A stretch of 64,000 bases of DNA, taken from contig JAEOUH010000029.1 in NCBI GenBank assembly GCA_016839365.1, forward strand, positions 1-64,000. Direction: 5' to 3'. Below, piece by piece: positions 49,366-63,959 of this stretch (positions are counted from its first letter, which is position 1; every line of letters begins with the position of its first letter). Below the pieces are notes generated by a model. The model did no database searches. It saw only the letters and a list, made by a program, of their open reading frames with translations, and was not told the origin of the DNA. Origin of the DNA: Candidatus Hermodarchaeota archaeon (GTDB taxonomy: Archaea; Asgardarchaeota; Hermodarchaeia; Hermodarchaeales; Hermodarchaeaceae). The position numbers and the translations under genes were made by a program.

Positions 49366-52251
49366 TTACAAATTCCGTAGAACTTTGCCGACATTGGTTC
49401 GACCCGCACGGCGGGCGGGGATATACGTTCCAATACTAATTCCAATGAGCACAACCCCAAGAACTGCAAGTAATAATACCCAAGGAATTCCCAGTTGAAA
49501 AGGAATCACATATGGAAAGGGAAAGAGGCCTAGTAGGATAAACATTGAAAGCCAAGAGAAGAAGAACCCAAGAAGTAATGCCACTAAGAAAGATGTGATG
49601 ATGAGCCCTGCAAATTCGCCTACTATTATTGCACTTATTTGTCGCTGAGTACTCCCCACAGCACGCATAATAGCATATTCTGTTTGCCGTTCGCGCACAA
49701 TGATTCCGACAAAGAGAATGAGGGCAATAATGCTGATAATGACACAGGCTAAGAATCCTATAGACAAGAGGCTTATCACCCCTCGATTGAATAGATAGCC
49801 TTCTGGATAATCTTCTTCTAACGAGTAGGTCATGGGAGAGTATACTGCAGTTGGGAAACTAAGATCACTTACTTGTTGATGGACTTGAACAATATCCACG
49901 TTTGCATCAACTTCAGCTAAGATTAGCCGTGTATTAGTCATATTTCGATTGAGTAGGAAATCGCTATTAATTATTGCAAAAAGCTGCGATGATTGGAATT
50001 GAAATCCATTGGTAGGATCTGGAGGTCGAGAAGGATCATTGGGATCGAAATAGCCCAGTCCTGGTGCACTGCGACCTATCCCAGTAATTAGAAATGAAGT
50101 ATCGCCCAATACTCCACCTCCTTGCTGATGAACTGAAATGACTATCCTGCTTCCAATAGTTCTTCCAAGAACTCCTGCCAGAGTGTTGGGAACAATAATT
50201 CCGTCGGTGTGGTTTTGCAAACGTTGAAGAGCCGCAAACGGATCTTCTCCAACCATGCTTGAGAGGTCCCAGTTGCCGGTTCTAGCATAAGATTCAACAT
50301 CAATTCCGTAAAGCGTCAATGAAGTTGAACCAAGGAGCCCATATGTTGCTATAAATGCAGAAGCCGAAAGGATGCCAGGAATAGATAGGATTTCACTTGT
50401 ATGATTATGATGAATTGAATTACTTTCGACTCGCAAATCCCCTCCCATGAAATAGCTAACCTGTGTGAAGGCGTTATCTTGAACTGTTTGAGCTTCGACA
50501 ACAGCGAATACTGAAATTGAGAAGGTAAGGGTTAAAATTAAGAGAAGTGGAACGATTCGTTGACGACGGGTTCGCATACTCTTCTCAAAAATGAAAGACT
50601 TCTCCCCAAATAAAGGTCGGAACCCACGGGTTACTCCCGCTATGATTTGTCGAACGATACGAGACCCAATATCGCTAAAAAGCGCCCATACTACGACTGC
50701 ATAAATGAAAAGGATTGTCGCTATTAATGGAGTTACGGGGAGAAAGAGTAAAGCAATGATAAGAAACCCTAGCAACGCAAACACAGCAATGGCGTAAATG
50801 ATTGTAATGCCGAGGTCAGCTTCAACTTGAGGGGTTGAACCTACCATCGCTTCGTATATTTCAGCCTTGAGAAAGCTTCGAACAGAAATCAATGTGAAGC
50901 TCAACGGGGGAATAATGCATGTGAGAAATGCGACTAGCCAGGTTAGGGGCTCAAGTCTGACATTTACAAGGTAAGTGTAAAAGATTGATGGATTAAATTG
51001 TAAGAACCCTGTTGAAGCAGGGATTAGCGAGCCAACGAGAATGCTGAGAACTACCCCTAAACCAAGGGCTATTGTTCCAATAATGATGAATTCTAGTATG
51101 AAGGCTGCGTAGAGTTGGCGGAAACTGGCGCCTCGAGCACGTAGTATCGCCACCTCCGATTTGCGACCACTCAGAAAGATGTTGGTGGCAAAGATAGTCA
51201 AAAGAATAGAGAGTAAGATGGTTGGTAAGGTTAATACAGCCATTGTTCTTCGCGATTGGCTCGCTGCAATATACTGCTCCAGAAGAACAACTTGATCCTC
51301 ACCCCTCACTGTGATTCTCCCTGTGAACTGTAGTTCCAATTGAGCTTGTAATTCCCGGATCTCAGTGGGTACGTTATCCAATCCAGTCACTGCGATTTCT
51401 TGAGGATTTAGCTGGACAAGGAGTATTGGAAAGAGAGAATTGGCAGTAAGGGTATCCCTCTCAGTTGAATTCAGTTGGGTATAATGCATGATAATGCCAT
51501 CATTCCAACCAAAGACCTTTTCTTGAATAGATCCGAGATGATTTACACGATAAGTTCCAAGAGCTGATGAGAAGAGGAGAGAGTTGCTCCTAGTAATATT
51601 GTAAATACCCACAACTAGGAGATTGGTTGTATTGAAAGGTTGAATATCACTAAATGTTAGTGGTTCTTGGTAGATTGAAGCAATTGTAACATTGATGTAA
51701 GATCCAATCGTTATGGTTTGATTGAGAAATTCACTTGCGTCCTCAATGACTCGTGTACTAACTAGACATTCACCAGGAGCTAATTGGAAAACGCCATCGA
51801 AAGAAAATTGGGAAACTACACGGGTAAGAAAGGCATTTTCAACGAAAAAGGCTTGGAAGTCCTTAATTTCGCGTGTATAGGGATAGGGGAGGTACGTAGT
51901 TGATGAGTTCCAGTCAGTTCCATTTAGAAAACCTATAGACTGATAGAAGATGTCTGAGTCTCGATAAGCGGTTTGTTCTCTACACCAATTCTCAACCTCA
52001 TTGAGTAGCTGGGTATCGATAGGGAAGGTGTATATTTGTTGAATTCCATATTGGTAGGTATTTGAGTTAAAGTAATCAAGTGTTGCCACCTGTGAATCGG
52101 TATCAGTCCACACAAAAACAGATGCAACTAATGCAACCCCGATCATGATACCGATGAGTAAACTGAAGAAACGTGCTTTGTTCTTCCAAACACTATTACC
52201 CACATAGCCTGCTACATACAAGCGACTCCCTGATGAATTTGGAGAAACCAC
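49366..52251 (-). CDS. Large FtsX/MacB-like permease, copy A
   Basis: RKSEVAILRARGAS, ERQTEYAIMRAVG, PARRA motifs. Confidence 0.9.
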   Translation of the reverse strand: MVSPNSSGSRLYVAGYVGNSVWKNKARFFSLLIGIMIGVALVASVFVWTDTDSQVATLDYFNSNTYQYGIQQIYTFPIDTQLLNEVENWCREQTAYRDSDIFYQSIGFLNGTDWNSSTTYLPYPYTREIKDFQAFFVENAFLTRVVSQFSFDGVFQLAPGECLVSTRVIEDASEFLNQTITIGSYINVTIASIYQEPLTFSDIQPFNTTNLLVVGIYNITRSNSLLFSSALGTYRVNHLGSIQEKVFGWNDGIIMHYTQLNSTERDTLTANSLFPILLVQLNPQEIAVTGLDNVPTEIRELQAQLELQFTGRITVRGEDQVVLLEQYIAASQSRRTMAVLTLPTILLSILLTIFATNIFLSGRKSEVAILRARGASFRQLYAAFILEFIIIGTIALGLGVVLSILVGSLIPASTGFLQFNPSIFYTYLVNVRLEPLTWLVAFLTCIIPPLSFTLISVRSFLKAEIYEAMVGSTPQVEADLGITIIYAIAVFALLGFLIIALLFLPVTPLIATILFIYAVVVWALFSDIGSRIVRQIIAGVTRGFRPLFGEKSFIFEKSMRTRRQRIVPLLLILTLTFSISVFAVVEAQTVQDNAFTQVSYFMGGDLRVESNSIHHNHTSEILSIPGILSASAFIATYGLLGSTSLTLYGIDVESYARTGNWDLSSMVGEDPFAALQRLQNHTDGIIVPNTLAGVLGRTIGSRIVISVHQQGGGVLGDTSFLITGIGRSAPGLGYFDPNDPSRPPDPTNGFQFQSSQLFAIINSDFLLNRNMTNTRLILAEVDANVDIVQVHQQVSDLSFPTAVYSPMTYSLEEDYPEGYLFNRGVISLLSIGFLACVIISIIALILFVGIIVRERQTEYAIMRAVGSTQRQISAIIVGEFAGLIITSFLVALLLGFFFSWLSMFILLGLFPFPYVIPFQLGIPWVLLLAVLGVVLIGISIGTYIPARRAGRTNVGKVLRNL

Positions 52252-52277
52252 TGGATGATTAGATCCGGAGGTCAGGA

Positions 52278-53012
52278 TTACTCCTCCTGGGAATCGCTTT
52301 CACGTCCATACATGGATGTATCTGTGTGGAGTCTTCCATGACGGAGGAGAAGAATTCGGTCGGCGGAGCCCGCAACTTCGGGGTCGTGGGTTGCAACGAC
52401 CACGGCTTTTTGATGTTCATGAGCTAATTTTTGAAATAACCTAATAATCTCAATCCCTGTGGCTGTATCTAGGTTTCCAGTCGGTTCATCAGCAAGAAGG
52501 AGGACTGGATTGTTCGCAATAGCTCGCGCGAATGCGATTCGCTGCATTTGGCCCCCTGACATTTGCGTTGGATATTGTTCAGCAAACTCACGCATTCCCA
52601 CTAAGTCGAGTAAATCCAGAGCCCGTGATATTCGCTCATATTTAGAGACATTAGCAAATATCATTGGTACCTCAACATTTTCACGGGCATTCATAATATC
52701 AAGAAGATAGAAGCCTTGAAAGACGATACCAATCTTGTCCCGACGGAGTTTGGAAAGGGCCCTGTCCTCCAAACCATTAACAGGTAATCCATCGATGCTT
52801 ATATCACCCGTTGTTGGCGAGTCCAATAATGCCATGAGGTTTATGAGGGTTGTTTTACCACTTCCAGAGGCGCCCACAATAGCGACAAATTCGCCTGCTG
52901 TAACGGAGAAGTCAAGACCCTTTAGCACTTCAATTTTAATATCTCCGTCCTCATATGTCTTGAAGACCTTGTCACATTGAACTATGATGGTTTTTTTGAC
53001 CAATCTCGACAC
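52278..53012 (-). CDS. LolD/MacB-like ABC ATPase
   Basis: GASGSGKT, MSGGQMQR, ADEPTGNLD, THD motifs. Confidence 0.93.
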   Translation of the reverse strand: MSRLVKKTIIVQCDKVFKTYEDGDIKIEVLKGLDFSVTAGEFVAIVGASGSGKTTLINLMALLDSPTTGDISIDGLPVNGLEDRALSKLRRDKIGIVFQGFYLLDIMNARENVEVPMIFANVSKYERISRALDLLDLVGMREFAEQYPTQMSGGQMQRIAFARAIANNPVLLLADEPTGNLDTATGIEIIRLFQKLAHEHQKAVVVATHDPEVAGSADRILLLRHGRLHTDTSMYGRESDSQEE

Positions 53013-53157
53013 CGTTGTCCAGCAGCAGGAGATTATAACGTGTAAATGTGTTCAGCAATCCCAGTTCACGCTTTAAATTGCTGGCATGTACAACGTTCAT
53101 AATTAGAAGCTTCCGGTTGCTGCAGAATCCGTTAAATAGCCTCCAGCGTAATTCCAG

Positions 53158-54099
53158 TCAAAACTTTGATAATACTGATTTTCCAAAGCTTTTGATCTGA
53201 TTGATTTCCTGCCTATGAGGAAACATGAAGATAAGGTGCTCTACGCCAATCGCTTCGAATTCGCGTAACCGGGTTAGAATTTGATTTGCGGTGCCCCAAA
53301 GTGCTTTGGCAATCCGTTCTCGAAAGTCCTCAATAGAGATATTTCGTGTTTTAGCAGTCTCAACGACTGCTGCGTCTTTTTCTTCTTCAGTGTCAAATAT
53401 TCGTGTCCACAAGCCCAATGATTTCTGAATATCAGACATCTCTCGTCCATATTTCTTACATAGCTCTGCAAGCCGAGTAAAGCGGGTGGCAAGTTCATCC
53501 GGAGTGCTCATCCACGCAAAATTAATTCCGTCACCATATTTTGCCGTAGCACGAAGCATGAATTCTTTGCCATTTTGAGCCCCTACCCAAATTGGCATAG
53601 GTTTCTGAAGGGGCTTCGGGAAGGCAATGATATCTTCGACTTGATAGTGTTTACCGGTAAAGGTGAAACGTTCAGAGGTCCATATACCGCGGATGATCTG
53701 AATCGCTTCATTCATCTGGTCTATTCGAGTTTTAGCTGAAGGAAAAGGATATCCATAAGCCTTGTATTCGATTTCTTTCCATCCAGCGCCGATGCCAAAT
53801 TCTAAGCGTCCACCTGATAAGACATCTAAGGTGGCAGCCATCTTAGCGGTTAAAGCAGGATTTCGATAACTTTGACAAAAGACCATGCTGCCTACACGAA
53901 CATTCTTGTTCTGTTGAGTAAGTGCCGTCATCAGAAGCCATGGATCCAGGAGAATTCGATCTGTGGAATCCTTATCCAACATAAAATGATCTGAAAACCA
54001 TATAGTGGAAAACCCATTCTTCAACGCAACATCTGTAATAGCAGAAACATCATCGAAGGTATGCCCAAACTGAGGTTCGATCTGAATACCAAATTTCAA
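53158..54099 (-). CDS. LLM-class (probably F420-dependent) oxidoreductase
   Basis: WFSDH, YRNPAL.AKMAATLDVLSGGRL.FGIGAGW motifs. Confidence 0.9.
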   Translation of the reverse strand: MKFGIQIEPQFGHTFDDVSAITDVALKNGFSTIWFSDHFMLDKDSTDRILLDPWLLMTALTQQNKNVRVGSMVFCQSYRNPALTAKMAATLDVLSGGRLEFGIGAGWKEIEYKAYGYPFPSAKTRIDQMNEAIQIIRGIWTSERFTFTGKHYQVEDIIAFPKPLQKPMPIWVGAQNGKEFMLRATAKYGDGINFAWMSTPDELATRFTRLAELCKKYGREMSDIQKSLGLWTRIFDTEEEKDAAVVETAKTRNISIEDFRERIAKALWGTANQILTRLREFEAIGVEHLIFMFPHRQEINQIKSFGKSVLSKF

Positions 54100-54216
54100 T
54101 TCTTATCACCAGCCTGCATATATCAAGAGTAATTTCAAACACGGTTGGTGAGTTCGGCTTAAATACTATAAATTTGCTAGCCCTGACCAACTGCTTTCAT
54201 TTAAGGTGCTTACTGC

Positions 54217-55653
54217 ATGCTTGAAAAACTCCAAGCTGCTGTCTCGTTGGGTGAAAAATTAGGGGCAGATTTTGTCGAAGCCCGTTTTGATGATTTGACC
54301 TTGCGCACGTTACGTCGAATTAAGACGAAGAAAGACGATACCTGGAAAGACATCATGTTAAAGTCTCGAACAGGAACTGGAATTATTTGCTACTTCGATG
54401 GCACCCCTGGTTATTCCTTTACCGCAAGCGAGGATCTAAAGGACATTGAAGAAACGGTTACTCGCGCTTATGGAATGGCAAAAGCCGCCTCTACAGCAGC
54501 CACCCTAAAACTCGACTTTGATAGAAGACCTACTGTAAAAAGTCGGTCCAGTGATTCACTTTCTGTGAAAATACATCCAAAGACCAAAGGGCAAGATTAC
54601 AAGATGGACTTGATCAACCGAATGGTAGACACGGCCTTTGATGTTGGAAAGGAAATTGAAAACATTACAGGCGCTTATGGTGAACTGACTGGTCAAAAGC
54701 TCTTCACCAATAGCGAAGCATCAATAATCAAATGGGAATTTCTTCTGGTTGACATGATGTGCCGGGTCACTTCCAAAGCGTCCTCAGGTGCTCTCGTCTT
54801 TGGATCTGAACGGAATGCAGGAAGCCTTGGGCTTGAAGCATATAATCGAAAAGGAAGCACGCCAGAAGAAGTCGGGAAAAAAGCTGCAATGTTTGCAGCA
54901 GAACAAATTCAAGCGAAACCCTGCCCAGCAGGGAAGTTTGCAACCCTCATTGATAATGAACTGGCAGGAGTTCTAGCTCATGAGAGCTTTGGCCACCTCA
55001 GTGAAGCTGATTTCGTTACCATGGGGGCCTCACCCTTAGCAGGGAAAATCGGTAATATGCTTGGAACTAAACATGCGACAATTGTAGATGGAGGGAACCC
55101 CGATATCAAAAAGGAGGGAGGTATGTGGTTACCCTTCGATGATCAGGGCATTCGAGCAAATATGACAACGATTCTTGACCGGGGAATATTCAAACATTAT
55201 CTCCATAACCGTGGCACCGCACAACAATTAGAGCAGGAACCAACAGGTAATTGCCGAGCAGTGCACTTCGGTTTCATGCCCATTCCGCGTATGACAAATA
55301 CCTACTTCAAGCCAGGGGATCTTACTGAAGAAGAGGCCCTTGAACAATTAGGAACGGGTATTTACGCGATTCAAACCTCAGGTGGACAGGTGGAAAGAGA
55401 TGGGAGTTTTCTGTTTAAGGCTGACAGAGGATATTGGGTTGAACATGGCGAAATCCAACACCCAATCCTTGAAGTCTCATTATCTGGCAACATCTTGGAA
55501 CTCTTACAACATATTGAAGGTGCTACACGTGACATCGGTTTATGGGGCTCGTACTTTGGCGGATGTGGGAAATTCGGGCAATATCCACTCCCCGCAGGAA
55601 TTGGAGGACCTAAACTTCTCATTCAAAATGTAACCTTTGGAGGAAAAGCATAG
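54217..55653 (+). CDS. tldD: TldD family metalloprotease
   Basis: HESFGH zinc motif, DDQG, TGN.R, PRMTNT, GCGK. Confidence 0.9.
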   Translation: MLEKLQAAVSLGEKLGADFVEARFDDLTLRTLRRIKTKKDDTWKDIMLKSRTGTGIICYFDGTPGYSFTASEDLKDIEETVTRAYGMAKAASTAATLKLDFDRRPTVKSRSSDSLSVKIHPKTKGQDYKMDLINRMVDTAFDVGKEIENITGAYGELTGQKLFTNSEASIIKWEFLLVDMMCRVTSKASSGALVFGSERNAGSLGLEAYNRKGSTPEEVGKKAAMFAAEQIQAKPCPAGKFATLIDNELAGVLAHESFGHLSEADFVTMGASPLAGKIGNMLGTKHATIVDGGNPDIKKEGGMWLPFDDQGIRANMTTILDRGIFKHYLHNRGTAQQLEQEPTGNCRAVHFGFMPIPRMTNTYFKPGDLTEEEALEQLGTGIYAIQTSGGQVERDGSFLFKADRGYWVEHGEIQHPILEVSLSGNILELLQHIEGATRDIGLWGSYFGGCGKFGQYPLPAGIGGPKLLIQNVTFGGKA

Positions 55654-55669
55654 GAGGAGGTTCCAAGGT

Positions 55670-57061
55670 ATGGAATTCGATGAAATCAAGGATGCCTTAT
55701 TATCTGAAGTTGATACAGGCTTAAAATTTGCGAATTCTTTGGACAAAGCGGCTGAATTTGAAATCTACCTTTACTATCGAAGTAAATCGAATGTTGAAAT
55801 TAAGCAAGGCGTTGTCGAAGCGACGGACGGCATAGTCGCAGGCACCGCTGTGCGTGCCACCCGAGATCAGAAACTAAGTTTTGCATCCTCAAGTGGCATC
55901 TCATCTAATCACGTCAAAAGGGCCTTGCAGGATGCCATTTCGAGCTTGAAAGCAACCTCTGAAAAAGATACTCGGTTTAAGGGATTTTGCGAACCCAAAC
56001 CTCCAGGAAAAGAAGGTAAATTCGCCCCTGAGATCTTAGAGCTTACAACTGACGACTTGGTAGGATATTCACTCCAATTGATAGGTAATATGACTAAGGC
56101 CAATGGAAGACTTCTAGCCGCTGTTGGATGTGAGAAGACCTGGGGTGGCTTCGCTATTGGGAATTCACTGGGCCTTCAACAGGCTTCTACATCGGCACAT
56201 AATGCCTGCAGTGCCTATGCAATGGCTATTGATGGGGAAGAACGAAGGACCGGTTCAGAAGAACTAGTTACCCGCGATAAAGCCTTAGACGTCTCTGGCA
56301 TAGGCGAAAAAGCGGCAGAAAAGGCCCTTAGCCTACTTGGTGCCAAGAAATTGGGGCAAACGACAACCCTTCCCACATTATGGGTGCCATGGGCTGCAGC
56401 GAGTTATATCCTTTCAAGTCTTCAGCAGGCTACCAAAGGGTCTACTGTTGTGGAGGGCTTATCACCTCTCCGGGAAAAACAAGGTGAAAAAATTGCTCAT
56501 CCTAATTTTTCACTAGTTGATGATGGTCAAAACCCATTAGGAATTGAGACTGAAGCCATTGATGCTGAAGGCCATCCCCAAGGTCGAACTGTGATTGTTA
56601 AGAATGGAATGCTGAAAAGCTTCATTTTTGATTCATATTATGGACGGATTGCTGGAAAAGCTTCGACTGGTAATTGTGCACGTTCCGGAGGACCGTTTGG
56701 TTCACGTTTGCCATATGAAGATGCACCTTCGATTTTTAGTAAGAACTTAGAAGTGGCAGCAGGAAAGCAGTCGGAGGAGGAGCTAATCGCATCCATTGAT
56801 GGTCAGGGATTGTTGATTACTGACATCCCCATCGGAATTTTTCATAGCTCGGTTGAAACGGGTGAATTTTCAGCTGTTGCTAGTTCAGTATTTCTCATCG
56901 AGGATGGCGAGAAAAAACGACCATTGGAACCTGTGTCAATTGCAGGAAACTTCTACAAGGGGCTAGAACAACTTCTCGGTGTCGGTAATAACATTGAAAT
57001 CACTTCACTCTTTGTAACAACTCCCAGCTTACTCATCGATGGGATTTCGGTAACGGGGTAG
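55670..57061 (+). CDS. pmbA: PmbA/TldE family protein
   Basis: DAEG, STGN, TGEFS, IAGN motifs; no HExxxH; follows tldD. Confidence 0.88.
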   Translation: MEFDEIKDALLSEVDTGLKFANSLDKAAEFEIYLYYRSKSNVEIKQGVVEATDGIVAGTAVRATRDQKLSFASSSGISSNHVKRALQDAISSLKATSEKDTRFKGFCEPKPPGKEGKFAPEILELTTDDLVGYSLQLIGNMTKANGRLLAAVGCEKTWGGFAIGNSLGLQQASTSAHNACSAYAMAIDGEERRTGSEELVTRDKALDVSGIGEKAAEKALSLLGAKKLGQTTTLPTLWVPWAAASYILSSLQQATKGSTVVEGLSPLREKQGEKIAHPNFSLVDDGQNPLGIETEAIDAEGHPQGRTVIVKNGMLKSFIFDSYYGRIAGKASTGNCARSGGPFGSRLPYEDAPSIFSKNLEVAAGKQSEEELIASIDGQGLLITDIPIGIFHSSVETGEFSAVASSVFLIEDGEKKRPLEPVSIAGNFYKGLEQLLGVGNNIEITSLFVTTPSLLIDGISVTG

Positions 57062-57163
57062 ACAGCCCTTTCAGACTTATGCTATTATTTTTGCCAACCC
57101 CTGTGAACCGATAGTTTTATCGAAGTTAACACCACCGATTCCTTTTGAGGAGCCTGCATACCC

Positions 57164-58195
57164 ATGTCAGATAAGTTATCTTCCATTGTATCTGAGGTCA
57201 AGGACTACTGGGGTCTCCGTCGCAAACAACCCATTGGGCAATTGGTAACCATACTGCGAAATGAGGGATTCAAATGTCCACATGTGCTCTCATCCATTGG
57301 AGAAGACTCGGCGGCAATCGACCTTGGTGGCGATAATCTCATTTTACTTTCCACAGATGCGGTCATTCCCGAATTAGCACAATCCAAACCTTATGTGGCA
57401 GGATACGCTGCAATCCTTGTAAACGTAAACGACATCTATGCAGCAGGAGGACGACCAATCGTAGCGATGGTGAATATTGCTTTCACTGAAATGAATGCCG
57501 GGGTGAAGATCATGGAGGGCATTTGTGAAGCAGGGCAGAAATTTAAAGTTGAAGTTGTACGTGGACACACGACACCTGATGCGCCCATTAATAGCGTCAG
57601 CGCATCAATTTGTGGAACTGTTCCCCGAGACTCCTATATCAGCGCCGGAGGAGCGCAGCCTGGGGACGACTTAATTCTCGCAGTGGATTTGAAAGGACGT
57701 ATCTCTCCTAATTACGAGTACGGGTGGGATACCAGCACACTAAAACCATCAAAGGAAATTCTGAAACGTTATGAAGCAATGCGTGTTCTTGCTCAAAAAC
57801 AGCTACTCACAGCATCAAAGGATCTAAGCAATGGTGGCATAATCGGAACAACACTATTGATGATAGAATATGCCCAAAAGGGAGCAACCATCGATTTATC
57901 AGCTATTCCCACTCCGAAGGAGATTGACCTCGCAAATTGGTTGAAGATGTACATTTCGACTGGATTTGTAGTCTCTACCATTCCAGAGAATGCTGAAACA
58001 GTATTATCCATCTTTGAAGGTCATGAGCTTTCAGCTCGCAAGATTGGAACTGTGAATAACACAAAAAAACTCAGGATTCAACTCGAAGAGGACATGATTA
58101 CTGTATTTGATTTTGCTCAAGAATCAATTGTAGCCCCTCCACCCCCACCTCAACTTAACCGTATTATAACTCGCAAGTTGAAGAAGGTAAAGTGA
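57164..58195 (+). CDS. PurM/AIR synthase-related protein (methanogenesis marker 2/sll0787-like)
   Basis: GEDSAA, STD, VNVNDIYAAGG.P, GHT, KDLSNGG motifs. Confidence 0.85.
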   Translation: MSDKLSSIVSEVKDYWGLRRKQPIGQLVTILRNEGFKCPHVLSSIGEDSAAIDLGGDNLILLSTDAVIPELAQSKPYVAGYAAILVNVNDIYAAGGRPIVAMVNIAFTEMNAGVKIMEGICEAGQKFKVEVVRGHTTPDAPINSVSASICGTVPRDSYISAGGAQPGDDLILAVDLKGRISPNYEYGWDTSTLKPSKEILKRYEAMRVLAQKQLLTASKDLSNGGIIGTTLLMIEYAQKGATIDLSAIPTPKEIDLANWLKMYISTGFVVSTIPENAETVLSIFEGHELSARKIGTVNNTKKLRIQLEEDMITVFDFAQESIVAPPPPPQLNRIITRKLKKVK

Positions 58196-58263
58196 CAGGA
58201 GACCCTAACCATAAATAGAAGAAAGTTCATGCAAATGTATACGGACAACACAGGGTGAGTATA

Positions 58264-58866
58264 ATGGCAACCGAGAAGCCACCTGAAAAGGATTACGAAA
58301 CTGAAGTATCAAAAGCAGTAAAGAGCATTCAAAAAATAGTCAAAGACGTTATTAAAGAACTCGAAAATCAGCGCGAACTCAATACAACTGCAGAATCGCG
58401 TATTGCAGAATTAACTCGCGAACTCGCTAACAAAACAGCAACCAACGAGCGATTAGAAAGAACCATTGGTGAGTTGAAGGAATCAGCGGATCAGACAACA
58501 GATCTGATGGTGAAAAACAAAGCACTAGAATCTGAGCTCAACGCAATCAAGACTCAATTAGAAAAAATGTCCGACACCTACAAGGAATTAGTTACAGAAC
58601 AGGAAGCCACAATTCCCGTTCAAGAATTGCTAGCCCTATACATCGCATTGCTAGAGGATGTCTTTTATGCCCAACCACACGCAAAGACTCTGTTCCTTTT
58701 GCACGGTCGGAAGAAGGAAATGACCCGCGATGAAATCACTAAGACTGCAGGACATGAAGCGACGGCAATTAGAAAAGCGCTGGGAGACCTTGCCCGGGCG
58801 AATTTAATCGATTACAATGTAGAAACCGGTAACGCGAAATTAAAGAAGCGCCTTTATCCGACTTAG
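58264..58866 (+). CDS. Coiled-coil protein with C-terminal winged helix-turn-helix
   Basis: About 100-aa heptad-rich segment, then MTRDEITKTAG...IRKALGDLARANLIDY. Confidence 0.75.
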   Translation: MATEKPPEKDYETEVSKAVKSIQKIVKDVIKELENQRELNTTAESRIAELTRELANKTATNERLERTIGELKESADQTTDLMVKNKALESELNAIKTQLEKMSDTYKELVTEQEATIPVQELLALYIALLEDVFYAQPHAKTLFLLHGRKKEMTRDEITKTAGHEATAIRKALGDLARANLIDYNVETGNAKLKKRLYPT

Positions 58867-59873
58867 ATCTTCATATCTGTCAACAACTGGTTGAAACGCG
58901 GTAAATTGTGGAGATTCGTAGTTAATGCGCAAAGATAGCGACTGAGTTCCGTGTGGATGATGCGTTCCGAATCAGACAAGGTTTTACTATCCGTTGCCTG
59001 ATCAACGAGTTCTCGGGCACTGCGATGGACTACACCCACAACGCGTTTTTCGACGTCAGCGGGTCCCCAATCAAATGCACGGAGACCCCGCTTTGCCTCA
59101 CTAATACTCGCTTTTACTGAATTATTTTGCAACGCATTAGCAAGTTGATCATAGAATTCGCTCGCTGTTCCCGCGATTTGATTTTGTTCTCGACTGGTTA
59201 AGTCGTTTCCAAGCGTTCCTCTTCGCGACAGTTCTTGTAAGAGACCAGCACAGGGGGCTTCAGCAAGAAATCGTCGAATAAGGTTGTAAAACACTTGCCC
59301 GGCAATATGTGTGACTTCGCTTATCACTTCTCGGGGTTCACTATAACGGAACAGTTCTCGACAGGACTCAAACCAGTAATTGGGTAGCAAAAGATGGCTT
59401 CGACTCGAGTATTTATCCAGTAGTTGCTGAAGGAGAGGAAGCTGTTTTTCCGGATCGAAAATGGAAAGGCGCCGCTGAAAAGGTTTTCCAGTAAGACCAG
59501 CGAGATCCGCACTCGCTTCAGTGATAAGCTGCTGAGTGGTTAAAAGAGGTTCCTTCAAATCCTCTTTTAGGATCGCCTGTTCTCGAGATTTCGAATACGA
59601 ATCCAGTGCAGTTTCTATACGCTTGAGATGGGTGAGAATCACTTTAATCGTATCATCTACAAATGAGGAGCCAGATGTTGCTGAGTTATTTCCCGAGTTG
59701 CCCAGAGTTCGCTTCACGGATTCTCGCACCGCTCGAACTCCACTTGCGAGCTGGTCAATTTGTTTCGACTCTAAACCGCCTTCAGCTTCAATGGTGATGA
59801 GGGCATGAATCAGGGTGGAGTTGACCGTGGTGAGTATGAGGATACGTTCCAGCAATTCTTCGGCCGTAATCAA
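58863..59873 (-). CDS. Hypothetical all-alpha protein, last gene of the tubulin-like operon
   Basis: 336-aa ORF starting 27 nt after the tubulin-like gene; GGGGAG RBS. Confidence 0.75.
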   Translation of the reverse strand: MITAEELLERILILTTVNSTLIHALITIEAEGGLESKQIDQLASGVRAVRESVKRTLGNSGNNSATSGSSFVDDTIKVILTHLKRIETALDSYSKSREQAILKEDLKEPLLTTQQLITEASADLAGLTGKPFQRRLSIFDPEKQLPLLQQLLDKYSSRSHLLLPNYWFESCRELFRYSEPREVISEVTHIAGQVFYNLIRRFLAEAPCAGLLQELSRRGTLGNDLTSREQNQIAGTASEFYDQLANALQNNSVKASISEAKRGLRAFDWGPADVEKRVVGVVHRSARELVDQATDSKTLSDSERIIHTELSRYLCALTTNLHNLPRFNQLLTDMKI

Positions 59874-59900
59874 AGGTCTTCTCCCCCGTTATGGCCTCGC

Positions 59901-61250
59901 CTACTTCATTTCGAGATTGAACAATTCGGCAACATCTCGAATCGCAGCACGGAGAACTTCTTCGCCGACGCCTTTTGATTTCTTGAACCAACCACGTCTA
60001 AGCGGTGATGGCCCTGCATGGAGATCAACCAGTTCAGTCGAAGAGTTTACTAAGTCTTCGATTTCGGGAATTTGTGGTAGCCCCAGCAGGAGGAGTAAGT
60101 CGGAAGGGTGCACGTCATCTTCATAAGAGACAAAACATGGAGTAATGGCGGCACCTTTTGCTGTATAGGGGCGGAGAGCCTGTTTGATATGGGGATCGTA
60201 TTCGGCTCGAGCATATTCACGGGAACCAGAAAAGGTATAATATGTTGAAGAAGCGGCTGGTTCAGACCCGATTTCAGCGAAGCTACAGTGTTCAACGGCA
60301 TATTTGACCATAGTCTTCAATTGCATGGCAATGTTTCCTGCTGATGGAATCAGGCTGACGTCGGTATACAGACAGGGCACAACGATGGGGTCCAGTTTCC
60401 GGGCATAGTCGGCAATATCAGTGGTTGGAAATACTTCCTTGCCAGGTTCAACAACCCCAGGACTAAGCATGTGCTCGACGAAGCGCAGGGCTAAGGGATT
60501 CACTAATTCCACGAAAGCAGATTCTTGAGCCTTAGAGGCTTCATTTGCACCATCAACGGTAGAAGGAACCATCCCTTCAACATCGGTTACTTTAGCTACA
60601 TCGATTTGCAACTGCTGTTGAAGAAAATCTGCTACTTCGCCTTCACGCCAAGCTAGAATCCGTCGAAGCATTGCACGGTTACTAAGGAGACAAACAAGAT
60701 CTGCACCTCGGTCTTCAAGCTGACCACGGAGGAGCTTGGAGAGTGACCACATGGTATTGAGAGCTTCTGACGTTTGGTCCTTGAATGGAAGAACCGTGAA
60801 AACGTAGACGAAGATGCGGCGTCCCTCCTCTTCTTGGAATCGCTGTTTAAGGATCTCAATGAGTGCAGGAGCACCGCCACACCCAGTCCCTCCACCAGAC
60901 GAGGTAAAGATGATAAATCCAGAAACCCCCTCAAACCCTAATTGGGTGAGCTGGCCCATGATGACATCTTTGAAGTCGTGCACATAATTATACCCGTCAG
61001 TGAAGTTGCCTCCACACCCAATATCAGAGGCACCATAAAGGAGTGTGTTTTCTTTAGGAATGTCATATTTTTGTCTGAGTTTTTGAATATCTGAACGGTC
61101 GGTGTTCATACACAAGTACCCGCGAATACGTGGTGGTAGCATTCGTTCTCGGGCTTGTTTTAGATAGGCCCCAACGAGGTTGCTCCCGCATTCGCCGATA
61201 CCGATGGCAAATACTTCCGCAACTCGTGGTCCTTCATCTGAGGCTTCCAT
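59901..61250 (-). CDS. Divergent tubulin/FtsZ superfamily GTPase
   Basis: IGIGECGSN (T1), MNTD (T2), GCGGN (T3), GGGTGCG (T4 signature), VLPF (T5), SN (T6), TTDIAD (T7). Confidence 0.92.
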   Translation of the reverse strand: MEASDEGPRVAEVFAIGIGECGSNLVGAYLKQARERMLPPRIRGYLCMNTDRSDIQKLRQKYDIPKENTLLYGASDIGCGGNFTDGYNYVHDFKDVIMGQLTQLGFEGVSGFIIFTSSGGGTGCGGAPALIEILKQRFQEEEGRRIFVYVFTVLPFKDQTSEALNTMWSLSKLLRGQLEDRGADLVCLLSNRAMLRRILAWREGEVADFLQQQLQIDVAKVTDVEGMVPSTVDGANEASKAQESAFVELVNPLALRFVEHMLSPGVVEPGKEVFPTTDIADYARKLDPIVVPCLYTDVSLIPSAGNIAMQLKTMVKYAVEHCSFAEIGSEPAASSTYYTFSGSREYARAEYDPHIKQALRPYTAKGAAITPCFVSYEDDVHPSDLLLLLGLPQIPEIEDLVNSSTELVDLHAGPSPLRRGWFKKSKGVGEEVLRAAIRDVAELFNLEMK

Positions 61251-61262
61251 GGTAGTTCAATC

Positions 61263-63959
61263 CTACTTTTTCTTGGCTTTTTCCTTTTGGTCGATCATAA
61301 CGGCTGCGAGTTCTCGAGCAGCCCACGTGAGGTAATTAGCGGTGTCCTCACGCGAATAGGTTTCACGAATACGTTTCTCGATTTCGTTAAGTTGACGATT
61401 GCGTTCAGCTTTTGGCGATGCTGGATTAAAATCTGCGAGGAATACGCGAAGGGCTTTGTGCCATTCGTCGAGTTCTTTGATTTTTTCCAGCCACTGCTGT
61501 TCTAAACTGCGAATAGTGGTGAATATATCAATTGATTCAGGAAGAGAATTAACCGTTTCTAGCTTTCCACGGAGATTTTGTAAGGTATCAAGTGGGAAGA
61601 TAAGTTTGCTAAATTCTTGTGGGCGAGCATCATAAACTCGTTTTATCGTTGAATAGTATTCGGTGGTATTTTCCAGGAGTTTTTCGAATGCCGCTTCGGT
61701 TTTTTGTTCCATGTTTCGAAGAATGTCCAAAACACTATTTTGAGCCTCAACAAGTGCCATACAGATTTCAAGCACCGTATTCACTTGCTCTGCATCTAAA
61801 GCATCAGGAACCCGGGCGAGAAGGTCCTTCAGTTTAACCACAACCTCTGCTTGCCCATGCCGTTCAAGGAGGTCGGTGACTGAATTGAGATTTCGCCAGA
61901 CTTCGTTGGCTTTGGATCGAATATCCTTAAGCAACTTAGCATCAGTGAGTAATTCCCGAAGTTCATCAAAACGATCAGGGAGTTCTTCGATATTAGCAGG
62001 CAATTTTTCTTGAAGTTTCATAGACTGCTTGACATAGGTATCAGTTTTGATACCCAAGGTGACCGAGACGTTTGTAAGTTCTGAAAAGGCTTTAATCTGC
62101 TCATTCAAGGCCTGGTTGAAGTAACCAACAATGCGTTTCTCAAATACCTCTACGATATGATGGGCTTTGCGAATGGCTTCTTCGTAGGTTTCGCTGGCAG
62201 GAACTACGGTGGTCAGTTCTTGGATAGCAGCTTGGACTTCGGAAGGAATAGTCAATCCCATTCCCAGGAGTTTTGAGACTGCTAGGCGTAGCTTCAAGTC
62301 AAGTCGATATTTGAGGTTTTCAATAGCGTCTTGTGCCTTATAGAGAGCATCACCCTGGGCTTCGCGAGCAACCTCTTCAATTTCCTCAAAACTCTTACTA
62401 GCACGAATATGCTTAATTGCTGTTTCCAAGAATTCTTCCATTGTTTTGAAGGATTCTCGATAGGTTGGTTTGATGACCTGGATTTCTGCTAAGAGAGCAT
62501 TGAGTTCTCGTTCCCATGCCTTGCGGAATAAATCAATACGGTTTTCTACATGCTTGTGGAGTCGTGCATAAGCCTCAACTAGCTCAGGGAATGAAATATC
62601 CGTGGTTCGGACAGGAGCAGGAGCAGCGCCCATTGTGGTTTTATCAAGAATGGTACTGGCAGTTTCAGAGATACGTACTAGCAACGCTTCTTGGGTTCGA
62701 ATTTCCGCCAGTAATTTTCCATGCTCTTCAATTATTTGTCCGGAAGTTTCTGAGTAAATCTTGACAAGATCCTTAAGGTCAGCCTTATTGAGGGGTTTTG
62801 TTTGTTTTTTCACAAATGCCTCAAGTTCATTGGAATTCGGCAGCACCTTTCGCTTTACGGCCCGCGTTAAATCATCGAGAATTCGGCTAGTTTCGGAACG
62901 AAGGGCTGTTTCGACATTGGTTTGGTAGGCTTGTAGCCGCTCATAGCTAGCAATGAGGGCCGCTAGATCAGCTTCCTTGGGGACTTCAGGGGGTATTGGT
63001 GGAAGGAAACTGGCTTCGTTGGAGATATTGGCACTTGCCAGTATCCGATTAAGGTTATGAGCAAATTCGAGTAGTTGACGTCTAATCTCACTGGAGGCTT
63101 TCATCACCTGTCCGTCATATTGTTGTACCAAGCCGAGAAGCATCGTCAGATTCGCTTCGCCTTCAAGTTGCTTCATAAGCCCTTCAAGGGATGTAGAAAT
63201 GGCCATAGGCACATTCAAATTCAAACTACGAGCGGTTTCCAAAAGGGCTAGCGCGGATTCGATGCTAGCTTGTAGTTTCGCCCGCAAGGTATCGACTACT
63301 TCCCCGCGTCGGCTGGTGAGATATTCATGCTCTTGCCGCAGGGTCTTGCGAATTTCGAATAGTTCCGGAATTGTATTAATATCAACGGAAGTCCGCTCCG
63401 CGCTAATTGACACATCACTAGTATCTATGCCTACAAAGCGATCATAGGTCTTGATAAGGGCCCGATTTTGTTCGAGCATATCATTCGTTTGTTTAAGAAG
63501 CGCTTCACGGAGCTGCTTTGAAAGCCCCTCCAAATTAGACACAAACCGGGAGATAACAGGTAACACGACGGCATATTTCCCTCTCGTTGAAGGGAATGAG
63601 AGATTGTTGAGGTCTCGCCCTAATTTGATGTCAAAGGACATGATGGTGGCCTTCAACTCCTCGAGTTCCACCATGTAATTTCGAAGCAATTCGATGTGAA
63701 GATCTAATGACCGATTTAGACCTTTATCGAGTTTGGGAAGTTCTTTATCGATTTGTTTGACTAGACGCCGCTTTTTGGGGCTTAGAGACCAGCTTGTTTT
63801 CGCATCCCGATCAAACCCTTCAATCGCCAAAAGCTCCCTTCCAACATCTTCTAGGGAGGTCTCAACTTCAGAGGGGAGACCGCCTAATATTGTTTGACAC
63901 TTAGAACTAACATCCTTGAGCATAGAGTAATACTTGCGCAGTTCTTCCAATGTAGTCAC
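61263..63959 (-). CDS. Large helical-repeat/coiled-coil protein
   Basis: 898 aa, L/E/K-rich, no TM segment, recurring helix N-cap motifs every ~61-74 aa. Confidence 0.8.
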   Translation of the reverse strand: MTTLEELRKYYSMLKDVSSKCQTILGGLPSEVETSLEDVGRELLAIEGFDRDAKTSWSLSPKKRRLVKQIDKELPKLDKGLNRSLDLHIELLRNYMVELEELKATIMSFDIKLGRDLNNLSFPSTRGKYAVVLPVISRFVSNLEGLSKQLREALLKQTNDMLEQNRALIKTYDRFVGIDTSDVSISAERTSVDINTIPELFEIRKTLRQEHEYLTSRRGEVVDTLRAKLQASIESALALLETARSLNLNVPMAISTSLEGLMKQLEGEANLTMLLGLVQQYDGQVMKASSEIRRQLLEFAHNLNRILASANISNEASFLPPIPPEVPKEADLAALIASYERLQAYQTNVETALRSETSRILDDLTRAVKRKVLPNSNELEAFVKKQTKPLNKADLKDLVKIYSETSGQIIEEHGKLLAEIRTQEALLVRISETASTILDKTTMGAAPAPVRTTDISFPELVEAYARLHKHVENRIDLFRKAWERELNALLAEIQVIKPTYRESFKTMEEFLETAIKHIRASKSFEEIEEVAREAQGDALYKAQDAIENLKYRLDLKLRLAVSKLLGMGLTIPSEVQAAIQELTTVVPASETYEEAIRKAHHIVEVFEKRIVGYFNQALNEQIKAFSELTNVSVTLGIKTDTYVKQSMKLQEKLPANIEELPDRFDELRELLTDAKLLKDIRSKANEVWRNLNSVTDLLERHGQAEVVVKLKDLLARVPDALDAEQVNTVLEICMALVEAQNSVLDILRNMEQKTEAAFEKLLENTTEYYSTIKRVYDARPQEFSKLIFPLDTLQNLRGKLETVNSLPESIDIFTTIRSLEQQWLEKIKELDEWHKALRVFLADFNPASPKAERNRQLNEIEKRIRETYSREDTANYLTWAARELAAVMIDQKEKAKKK

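Follow-up and report, generated by a model that had tools for sequence, protein, structure and literature searches.

The window analyzed here is a stretch of 64,000 nucleotides from a Candidatus Hermodarchaeota archaeon (GCA_016839365.1, contig JAEOUH010000029.1, positions 1 to 64,000). Three genes follow one another on its minus strand. The first (61263-63959) encodes a soluble, all-helical protein of about 898 amino acids, built of repeated bundles and belonging to no known family; it is called the rod here. This gene ends 12 nt before the ATG start of the second (59901-61250), which encodes P0001, a tubulin-superfamily GTPase of 449 amino acids. The third (58863-59873) begins 27 nt beyond the stop codon of the GTPase gene, at a TTG codon that lies 7 nt past a Shine-Dalgarno-like GGGGGAG (59881-59887). 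It delivers a helical protein of 336 amino acids, also of no known family, which is predicted to bind the GTPase. No transmembrane segment was found in the rod, the GTPase or the partner. All coordinates given below for features of these genes refer to the same strand.

A convergent gene on the plus strand (58255-58866) overlaps the stop of the partner gene and encodes a 203-aa protein with a coiled coil and a winged helix. It was seen at Hermodarchaeote loci only, and was rejected as an operon member in favor of being a local neighbor. Positions 49366-58195 hold an FtsX-type permease, an ABC ATPase, a luciferase-like oxidoreductase, a TldD/PmbA pair and an AIR-synthase-like protein, these names being taken from the annotation of a close relative. 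Two short contigs from a single metatranscriptome match the GTPase and rod genes at 99% identity or better; having no silent control beside them, they are not counted as evidence of transcription.

P0001 matches the Pfam Tubulin GTPase domain (PF00091) with an E value of 1.7e-18. At E 0.1, the only other Pfam match is a sub-threshold one to Tubulin_2; Tubulin_C (PF03953), FtsZ_C, CetZ_C (PF21011) and TubZ_C are not matched, and Tubulin_C is found nowhere in the genome. TIGR00065 gives 27.3 bits against a cut-off of 295.2, which puts P0001 outside FtsZ1/FtsZ2 by profile; the FtsZ of the same genome clusters with a Hermodarchaeota FtsZ. Homologs of P0001 share 49-93% identity with it and are spread over Hermod-, Thor-, Sif/Borr-, Hod-, Baldr- and Asgardarchaeia. 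Across classes the identity is 49-65%, and the closest named record, from Ca. Hermodarchaeum yapensis (93%), marks the host as a Hermodarchaeote.

These proteins, of course, already have a name. Four CetZ-like Asgard sequences were grouped as Asg.Tub by Santana-Molina, del Saz-Navarro and Devos (2023; PMC9871819), who found the position of the group between CetZ and tubulin to be unstable in their trees and its C-terminal model to match no other tubulin, and who remarked on coiled-coil neighbors and assigned the group no function. Their alignment defines the clade by OLS26264.1, OLS30664.1, KXH77455.1 and PWI48967.1. The comparison made here took in all but the last, and all three have a counterpart: P0086 bears the published C-terminal half of OLS26264.1, while 20-residue motifs of OLS30664.1 and KXH77455.1 are found in L042 and L033, respectively. 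The matched proteins are 50-62% identical to P0001, which nests among them with support of 100/96 (LG+C20 tree) and 99 (FastTree). P0001 is thus a further member of Asg.Tub. An earlier note on this DNA had offered it as a family intermediate between FtsZ/CetZ and tubulin, and had itself named nesting inside a described clade as the finding that would count against this; given the published alignment, the shared motifs and the tree, any claim of novelty falls. The "CetZ-related Asgard archaeal clade" that Lowe et al. (2026; 10.64898/2026.02.15.705738; PMC13394414) used solely as an outgroup is probably the same clade. No functional or structural study of Asg.Tub was found in the literature searched.

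Where does this family lie? The main trees used LG+C20, with FastTree agreeing. They were built without TubZ, artubulin, epsilon-tubulin, BtubA/B, three plasmid proteins and one FtsZ, and with one gamma- and one delta-tubulin sequence. In these trees, Asg.Tub, the Halo.Tub-like proteins, the P0134 group and the tubulins make up one branch (95/82) against CetZ (98/94). The tubulin clade (100/100) leaves P0001 outside, making it distinct from OdinTubulin and AtubA/B, and the FtsZ clade is likewise separate from it (100/100). Forcing Asg.Tub to be sister to the tubulins, or forcing it into CetZ, is weakly rejected (AU p 0.039 and 0.025, with long branches and thin sampling in both cases). Thus, the view that P0001 represents a distinct group between CetZ and tubulin stands, even if the group is not new. 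The published tree sets Asg.Tub and the artubulins apart, and in the literature artubulins, OdinTubulin and AtubA/B are placed nearer to tubulins than Asg.Tub is. P0001 is not a true tubulin, because it has neither Tubulin_C nor the H1-S2 insert.

The survey met several other divergent members of the superfamily. P0134 (L109:5001-6308) and P0237 (L140:5001-6197) belong to a separate group with an H11-H12-type tail, one cluster of which is labeled Korarchaeota. P0237 comes after genes for SMC, a probable ScpA, ScpB and a 651-aa protein; P0134 has beta-propeller, Prok-RING and ThiF genes as neighbors. P0125 (L110:5001-7149) is a distant sister of Asg.Tub (100/100), with SMC and ScpA genes about 3 kb upstream. 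A very divergent protein of 382 aa (L134:321-1466) occurs in a Heimdallarchaeota-labeled family without Asg.Tub, and genome G147 holds a tandem AtubA/B-like pair (L108:7098-9678), with a 508-aa gene before it and a 385-aa gene after it, both on its strand.

Translation and alignment find all of the GTP-binding loops in P0001, in the places where the earlier note had read them. The T1 loop (residues 17-24; 61179-61202) contains GECG at 19-22, with E20 invariant and C21 kept in at least 90% of homologs. GECG had been taken as a tubulin marker; the motif is present, but GxCG is not diagnostic of tubulin, because CetZ 3zid and the CetZ-like P0147 carry GQCG. T2 reads NTD (49-51; 61098-61106), as in FtsZ and CetZ, where tubulins have DLE. 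In T3 (78-87; 60990-61019), F83 pairs with tubulin Y/W103, and G86-Y87 with G106-H107. Conservation and alignment identify the T4 signature GGGTGCGG (119-126; 60873-60896), with GGGTGCG at 119-125. T5 (154-165; 60756-60791) opens with LPF (154-156), and its E162 and N165 line up with E183 and N186 of alpha-tubulin. The T7 loop, TTDIAD (276-281; 60408-60425), holds D278 and D281, which correspond to D251 and E254 of alpha-tubulin and align also to both T7 aspartates of FtsZ. N191 and N251 align to the guanine-binding N206 and N228 of alpha-tubulin. These six residues (N191, N251, E162, N165, D278, D281) are invariant in 115 homologs, and the catalytic acid of T7 is therefore kept, as had been claimed. 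Two loop residues are replaced: T7 has Thr in place of Asn, and T6 has Ser in place of Asp. NTD, LPF and TTDIAD had been called FtsZ-like; the motifs are in place, and NTD and LPF occur in CetZ-like proteins too. We infer that such "mosaic" features are retained ancestral states rather than products of recombination.

In the FtsZ/tubulin superfamily, the T7 acids work in trans on the next subunit. Their invariance here therefore implies head-to-tail contacts, and makes it likely that P0001 would couple GTP hydrolysis to polymerization. Between T6/H6 and H7, the family carries an insertion of its own (about residues 198-243; 60522-60659), which is poorly conserved and is modeled with low pLDDT, with two short helices. 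It is about 38-42 residues long, somewhat less than the 45 or so first estimated: N191 and N251 are separated by 60 residues in P0001 and by 50-69 across Asg.Tub, against 22 in tubulin, 20 in FtsZ and 18 in a CetZ. Judging from tubulin structure, this insertion of about 40 residues is placed near the longitudinal interface, where it could hinder assembly. Aligned with tubulins, P0001 has neither the H1-S2 insert nor DLEP at T2, and its M-loop region is short.

The C-terminus is a different matter. In the AlphaFold2 model (mean pLDDT 83.9) and in profiles, P0001 ends in H11 (395-411), H11' (416-426) and H12 (430-443), encoded at 59922-60068. W421 (whose codon starts at base 59990), F422, K426 and G427 are invariant in homologs. 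This segment had been aligned by eye to the end of alpha-tubulin, and that alignment holds, because the tail profile beats its shuffles and the model aligns to tubulins through H12. Against tubulin tails, the profile scores 26.7, where shuffles give 9.6 +/- 1.8 (0 of 60 reach the real score) and the reversed profile 10.2. The match has an HH probability of 77% over 23 columns covering H12. In the alignment, P0001 has one residue more than tubulin separating the aromatic pair from the glycine. The profile match is seen only when tail is compared with tail, the whole-protein profile aligning with tubulins in the GTPase domain only.

Structural alignment agrees. The model superposes on OdinTubulin (7evb) with Z 35.6 and an rmsd of 2.9 Å over 362 residues, model residues 9-446 pairing with chain residues 2-417. 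OdinTubulin, CetZ and BtubB, the top matches, all lie within about 1 Z unit. However, the alignment reaches OdinTubulin 417-420 and beta-tubulin 424-434, that is, through H12, whereas CetZ chains end at model residue 409-418. The tail of P0001 thus aligns with tubulin H11-H12, as judged from aligned ranges and profiles. P0001 has a tubulin-type H11-H11'-H12 tail. Alignments and profiles show that the tail is not unique to Asg.Tub but common to other intermediates between CetZ and tubulin: the tails of P0134, P0151 and P0237 match that of Asg.Tub with a score of 26.6 (0 of 60 shuffles), and Halo.Tub-like proteins have two tail helices by alignment, with no significant profile match between their tail and that of Asg.Tub.

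The three genes stay together. Among 80 Asg.Tub loci, the rod gene is present in all 75 that have enough flank (directly adjacent in 74), and the 336-aa partner gene adjoins the GTPase gene in 78 of 78; the trio is kept also at loci of Baldrarchaeia, Asgardarchaeum and additional Hodarchaeales. Of 301 Asgard genomes, 115 have the GTPase and 113 the partner, in the same nine families, Hodarchaeales included; in the Hodarchaeales family sampled, 20 of 21 genomes have Asg.Tub. Neither protein was found in the sampled families labeled (by FtsZ) Lokiarchaeota (0/68), Heimdallarchaeota (0/29), Atabeyarchaeia (0/3) or Jordarchaeales (0/5), nor in the OdinTubulin family (0/4). The operon is chromosomal and apparently vertically inherited. 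True tubulins occur in 7 of the 301 genomes, none of which has Asg.Tub as well. Mutual exclusion is nevertheless not claimed, since only three lineages here bear tubulins and tubulins have been reported in some Hodarchaeales (Lowe et al., 2026; PMC13394414).

A second Asg.Tub copy turns up in eight Hodarchaeales genomes. Both copies examined (L100:4560-9328 and L102:8423-13180) have a rod gene of 1140 aa and no adjoining partner gene, and second copies show an identity of 0.44-0.51 in the face predicted to bind the partner, against 0.54-0.57 overall. FtsZ genes are present in the genomes beside the operon. Three genomes, two Hermodarchaeote and one from Hodarchaeales, each yielded a single FtsZ and are 84-96% complete; two FtsZ-type genes accompany the operon in three others (by their loci, Thorarchaeia, Borrarchaeum and Baldrarchaeia). 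The sole FtsZ found in the 84%-complete genome G000 (C74; L001:1372-2742) groups with an Odin FtsZ bearing an insertion in its C-terminal domain, FtsZ2-like according to the literature; G060 likewise yielded one.

The rod is modeled as a soluble, all-helical protein (pLDDT 85) with a repeat unit of about 125 aa, and the family runs from about 870 to 1185 aa, varying partly by units. No significant relative was found in Pfam, NCBIfam, PDB sequences or the Atlas. With Foldseek, PRC1 comes at rank 3-4 (E 0.085), with no match to the MAP65_ASE1 Pfam family; in a second-look alignment, it ranks first and second (Z 7.7-8.2; 309 residues aligned and rmsd 24 Å at Z 8.2). EzrA gives Z 9.2 over 107 residues. 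Taken together, the PRC1 and EzrA alignments span Z 6-9, with rmsd reaching 24 Å at most. Such values are usual for helical rods, and both likenesses are leads only. No GCP-type match stood out in the structural search, and a search for homology between the rod and the large genes beside P0134 and P0237 found none.

The gene upstream of OdinTubulin has been likened to Prc1 in the literature, which, set beside the PRC1 match of the rod, is suggestive. Homology between the flanks of Asg.Tub and of OdinTubulin was not detected, however, either by HMM or by HH comparison (probabilities 0.4% and 4.8%), and the similar gene order may reflect convergence or an origin too ancient to trace. OdinTubulin lies between a helical gene of ~540 aa and a coiled-coil gene of ~490 aa in two genome families (L091:5539-9940, L092-L095), so these flanks are more widespread than the single genome to which they had been said to be confined (PMC9871819).

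For the 336-aa partner, searches of Pfam, NCBIfam, PDB sequences and the Atlas returned nothing beyond weak and scattered helical matches. Among the candidates considered for the two operon partners, apolipoprotein A-I (E 0.004) and pP_pnuc_1 (0.88) were left as leads only, and the searches found a DNA-binding domain in neither protein. The modeled complex of GTPase and partner is another matter. It reaches an ipSAE of 0.63, against 0.00 in three controls. Of 80 solved complexes, 58 attain the mark used, as do 2 of 110 mismatched pairs. At least 97% of contacts recur between runs, with a partner pLDDT of at least 75. The main interface segment predicted in the partner is residues 269-287 (59013-59069), with invariant G270, E275 and R277. 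On the GTPase, the predicted face comprises residues 52-76 and 93-104 (60939-61097), mapping to alpha-tubulin 72-95 and 114-127, which are H2, the H2-S3 loop and H3. In tubulin, the H2-S3/H3 side takes the M-loop of the neighboring protofilament. The partner is thus predicted to bind a lateral face of the GTPase, and the modeled site leaves both longitudinal faces free. No comparable solved complex is known to us. Conservation in the partner is higher at the interface than in its remainder (0.63 against 0.45, p 1e-4), although the same alignments fed the model and this is not independent evidence; the GTPase side shows no extra conservation (0.64, against a protein average of 0.67). A 262-aa gene after P0125 weakly matches the partner's binding segment (E 7.6e-4, probability 25%).

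The interpretation that we prefer, with confidence only somewhat above even, is that the Asg.Tub GTPase stands at the center of a conserved cytoskeletal module of three proteins that forms partner-decorated protofilaments, not microtubules. The GTPase would bind GTP and polymerize head to tail as a homopolymer, in which D278 and D281 of each subunit would complete its neighbor's active site, to give dynamic protofilaments. The 336-aa partner, on the H2-S3/H3 side, would be expected to yield single or paired decorated strands and no tubes, because it would occupy the lateral face and the H1-S2 insert is missing. The long rod may then cross-link, space or tether the filaments, as PRC1 and EzrA rods do with theirs. 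This is the weakest step, and docking of the rod on the conserved outer H11-H12 face would be speculation. The likeliest job for such a module would be scaffolding of cell shape or membrane, favored over cytokinesis because FtsZ genes are kept alongside.

Other explanations must, of course, be weighed. The GTPase might not polymerize at all, serving instead as a switch or template in a fixed three-protein complex, much as gamma-tubulin does with its GCP scaffolds, or as Misato. It is mostly single copy, its partners are strictly co-inherited, it is strongly conserved (the 49-65% identity across classes), it has a large insertion near the polymer interface, and its T7 Asn and T6 Asp are replaced. 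The invariant T7 acids, acting in trans, nevertheless imply head-to-tail contacts; the longitudinal faces are left free by the predicted partner site; and the rod has no outstanding GCP-type match. We regard this explanation as rather unlikely, yet worth keeping in mind. That Asg.Tub instead makes microtubules, as the direct precursor lineage of eukaryotic tubulins, would fit the H11-H12 tail, the tubulin-like T3 aromatic, the Glu and Asn of T5, the grouping with tubulins against CetZ (95/82) and the near-universal presence in the sampled Hodarchaeales family (20/21). We give it the slimmest prospects of all: structural identity to tubulins is just 13-21%, the H1-S2 insert and Tubulin_C are missing, the M-loop region is short, exclusive sisterhood with tubulins is weakly rejected (AU p 0.039), artubulins, OdinTubulin and AtubA/B are placed closer in published work, and the lateral face is predicted to be covered by the partner.

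Two further explanations concern what a filament would do. A DNA-segregation filament of the TubZRC kind, its partners tying it to the chromosome, is brought to mind by TubZ-like clusters among the structural neighbors of P0001 and by the SMC and ScpA(B) genes near its distant relatives P0125 and P0237. Yet neither partner has a DNA-binding domain that could be found, the winged-helix neighbor is convergent and limited to Hermodarchaeote loci, TubZ_C is not matched, and the operon is chromosomal and apparently vertical in its inheritance, all of which makes this explanation quite improbable. We consider just as improbable that the GTPase is a division protein replacing one FtsZ paralog, with the rod as an EzrA-like regulator. 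The two Hermodarchaeote genomes and one Hodarchaeales genome with a single FtsZ, and the weak likeness of rod to EzrA (Z 9.2), might be read in this way; but those genomes are 84-96% complete, and three other genomes have two FtsZ-type genes plus the operon.

The decorated-protofilament reading can be carried one step further. H11-H12 is the outer surface of tubulin, bound by eukaryotic motors and MAPs. In Asg.Tub, H11-H12 sits on a CetZ-like core, which suggests that the docking surface arose before the lateral contacts that form tubes. On a bolder account, Asg.Tub would form a prokaryotic filament with MAPs of its own that is older than microtubules, widespread and ancestral, with H11-H12 docking a PRC1-like rod and a lateral cofactor beside it; we hold this account tentatively, as doubtful but far from fanciful. 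True tubulins are present in about 1% of Asgard genomes, and the existence of archaeal tubulin-associated proteins has been posed as an open question (Lowe et al., 2026; PMC13394414). Asg.Tub, in 115 of 301 Asgard genomes, is far commoner than true tubulins, in Hodarchaeales too, and its operon offers two candidate binding proteins of this kind in archaea. The question is directly testable, as E. coli can serve to express all three genes, and cultures of Hodarchaeales have been reported in the literature.

How, then, does this module compare with known systems? Set beside TubZ, P0001 has no match to TubZ_C and its operon no TubR-type DNA-binding partner that could be found. PRC1/Ase1/MAP65 and EzrA share with the rod the form of a repeated helical-bundle rod, without any sequence match. 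Halo.Tub, the P0134/P0151/P0237 group, P0125 and P0137 lie on the same branch with tubulins (95/82) and have two-helix tails by alignment; these intermediates differ from Asg.Tub in their hosts and in their gene contexts.

Among solved structures, the best sequence matches are CetZ proteins (H. volcanii CetZ1/2, 4b46/4b45, and Methanosaeta 3zid; E 2e-11 to 7e-7), which share with P0001 the core fold (Z 34-35), H11, the loss of the T7 Asn and the lack of an H1-S2 insert. Unlike CetZ, P0001 has other T3, T5 and T7 motifs, the 40-residue insertion, conserved partners, no CetZ_C and a tail beyond residue 409-418, and the CetZ clade excludes it. By structure, P0001 is best matched by OdinTubulin, AtubA/B, BtubA/B and alpha/beta-tubulin, with which it shares a catalytic acid where alpha-tubulin has E254; in addition, OdinTubulin, like Asg.Tub, is encoded by one gene with a helical or coiled-coil gene on either side. 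P0001 is unlike the tubulins in its low identity to them, in NTD for DLEP, and in lacking Tubulin_C and the H1-S2 insert. The published Asg.Tub proteins (PMC9871819) are, of course, the same clade, with the same CetZ-like indels and helical or coiled-coil neighbors. What the present analysis adds to that description is the breadth of the family's distribution, together with three features absent from the literature searched: a tail homologous to H11-H12 of tubulin, a three-gene operon that stays fixed throughout nine families of Asgard archaea, and a partner predicted to bind the lateral face.
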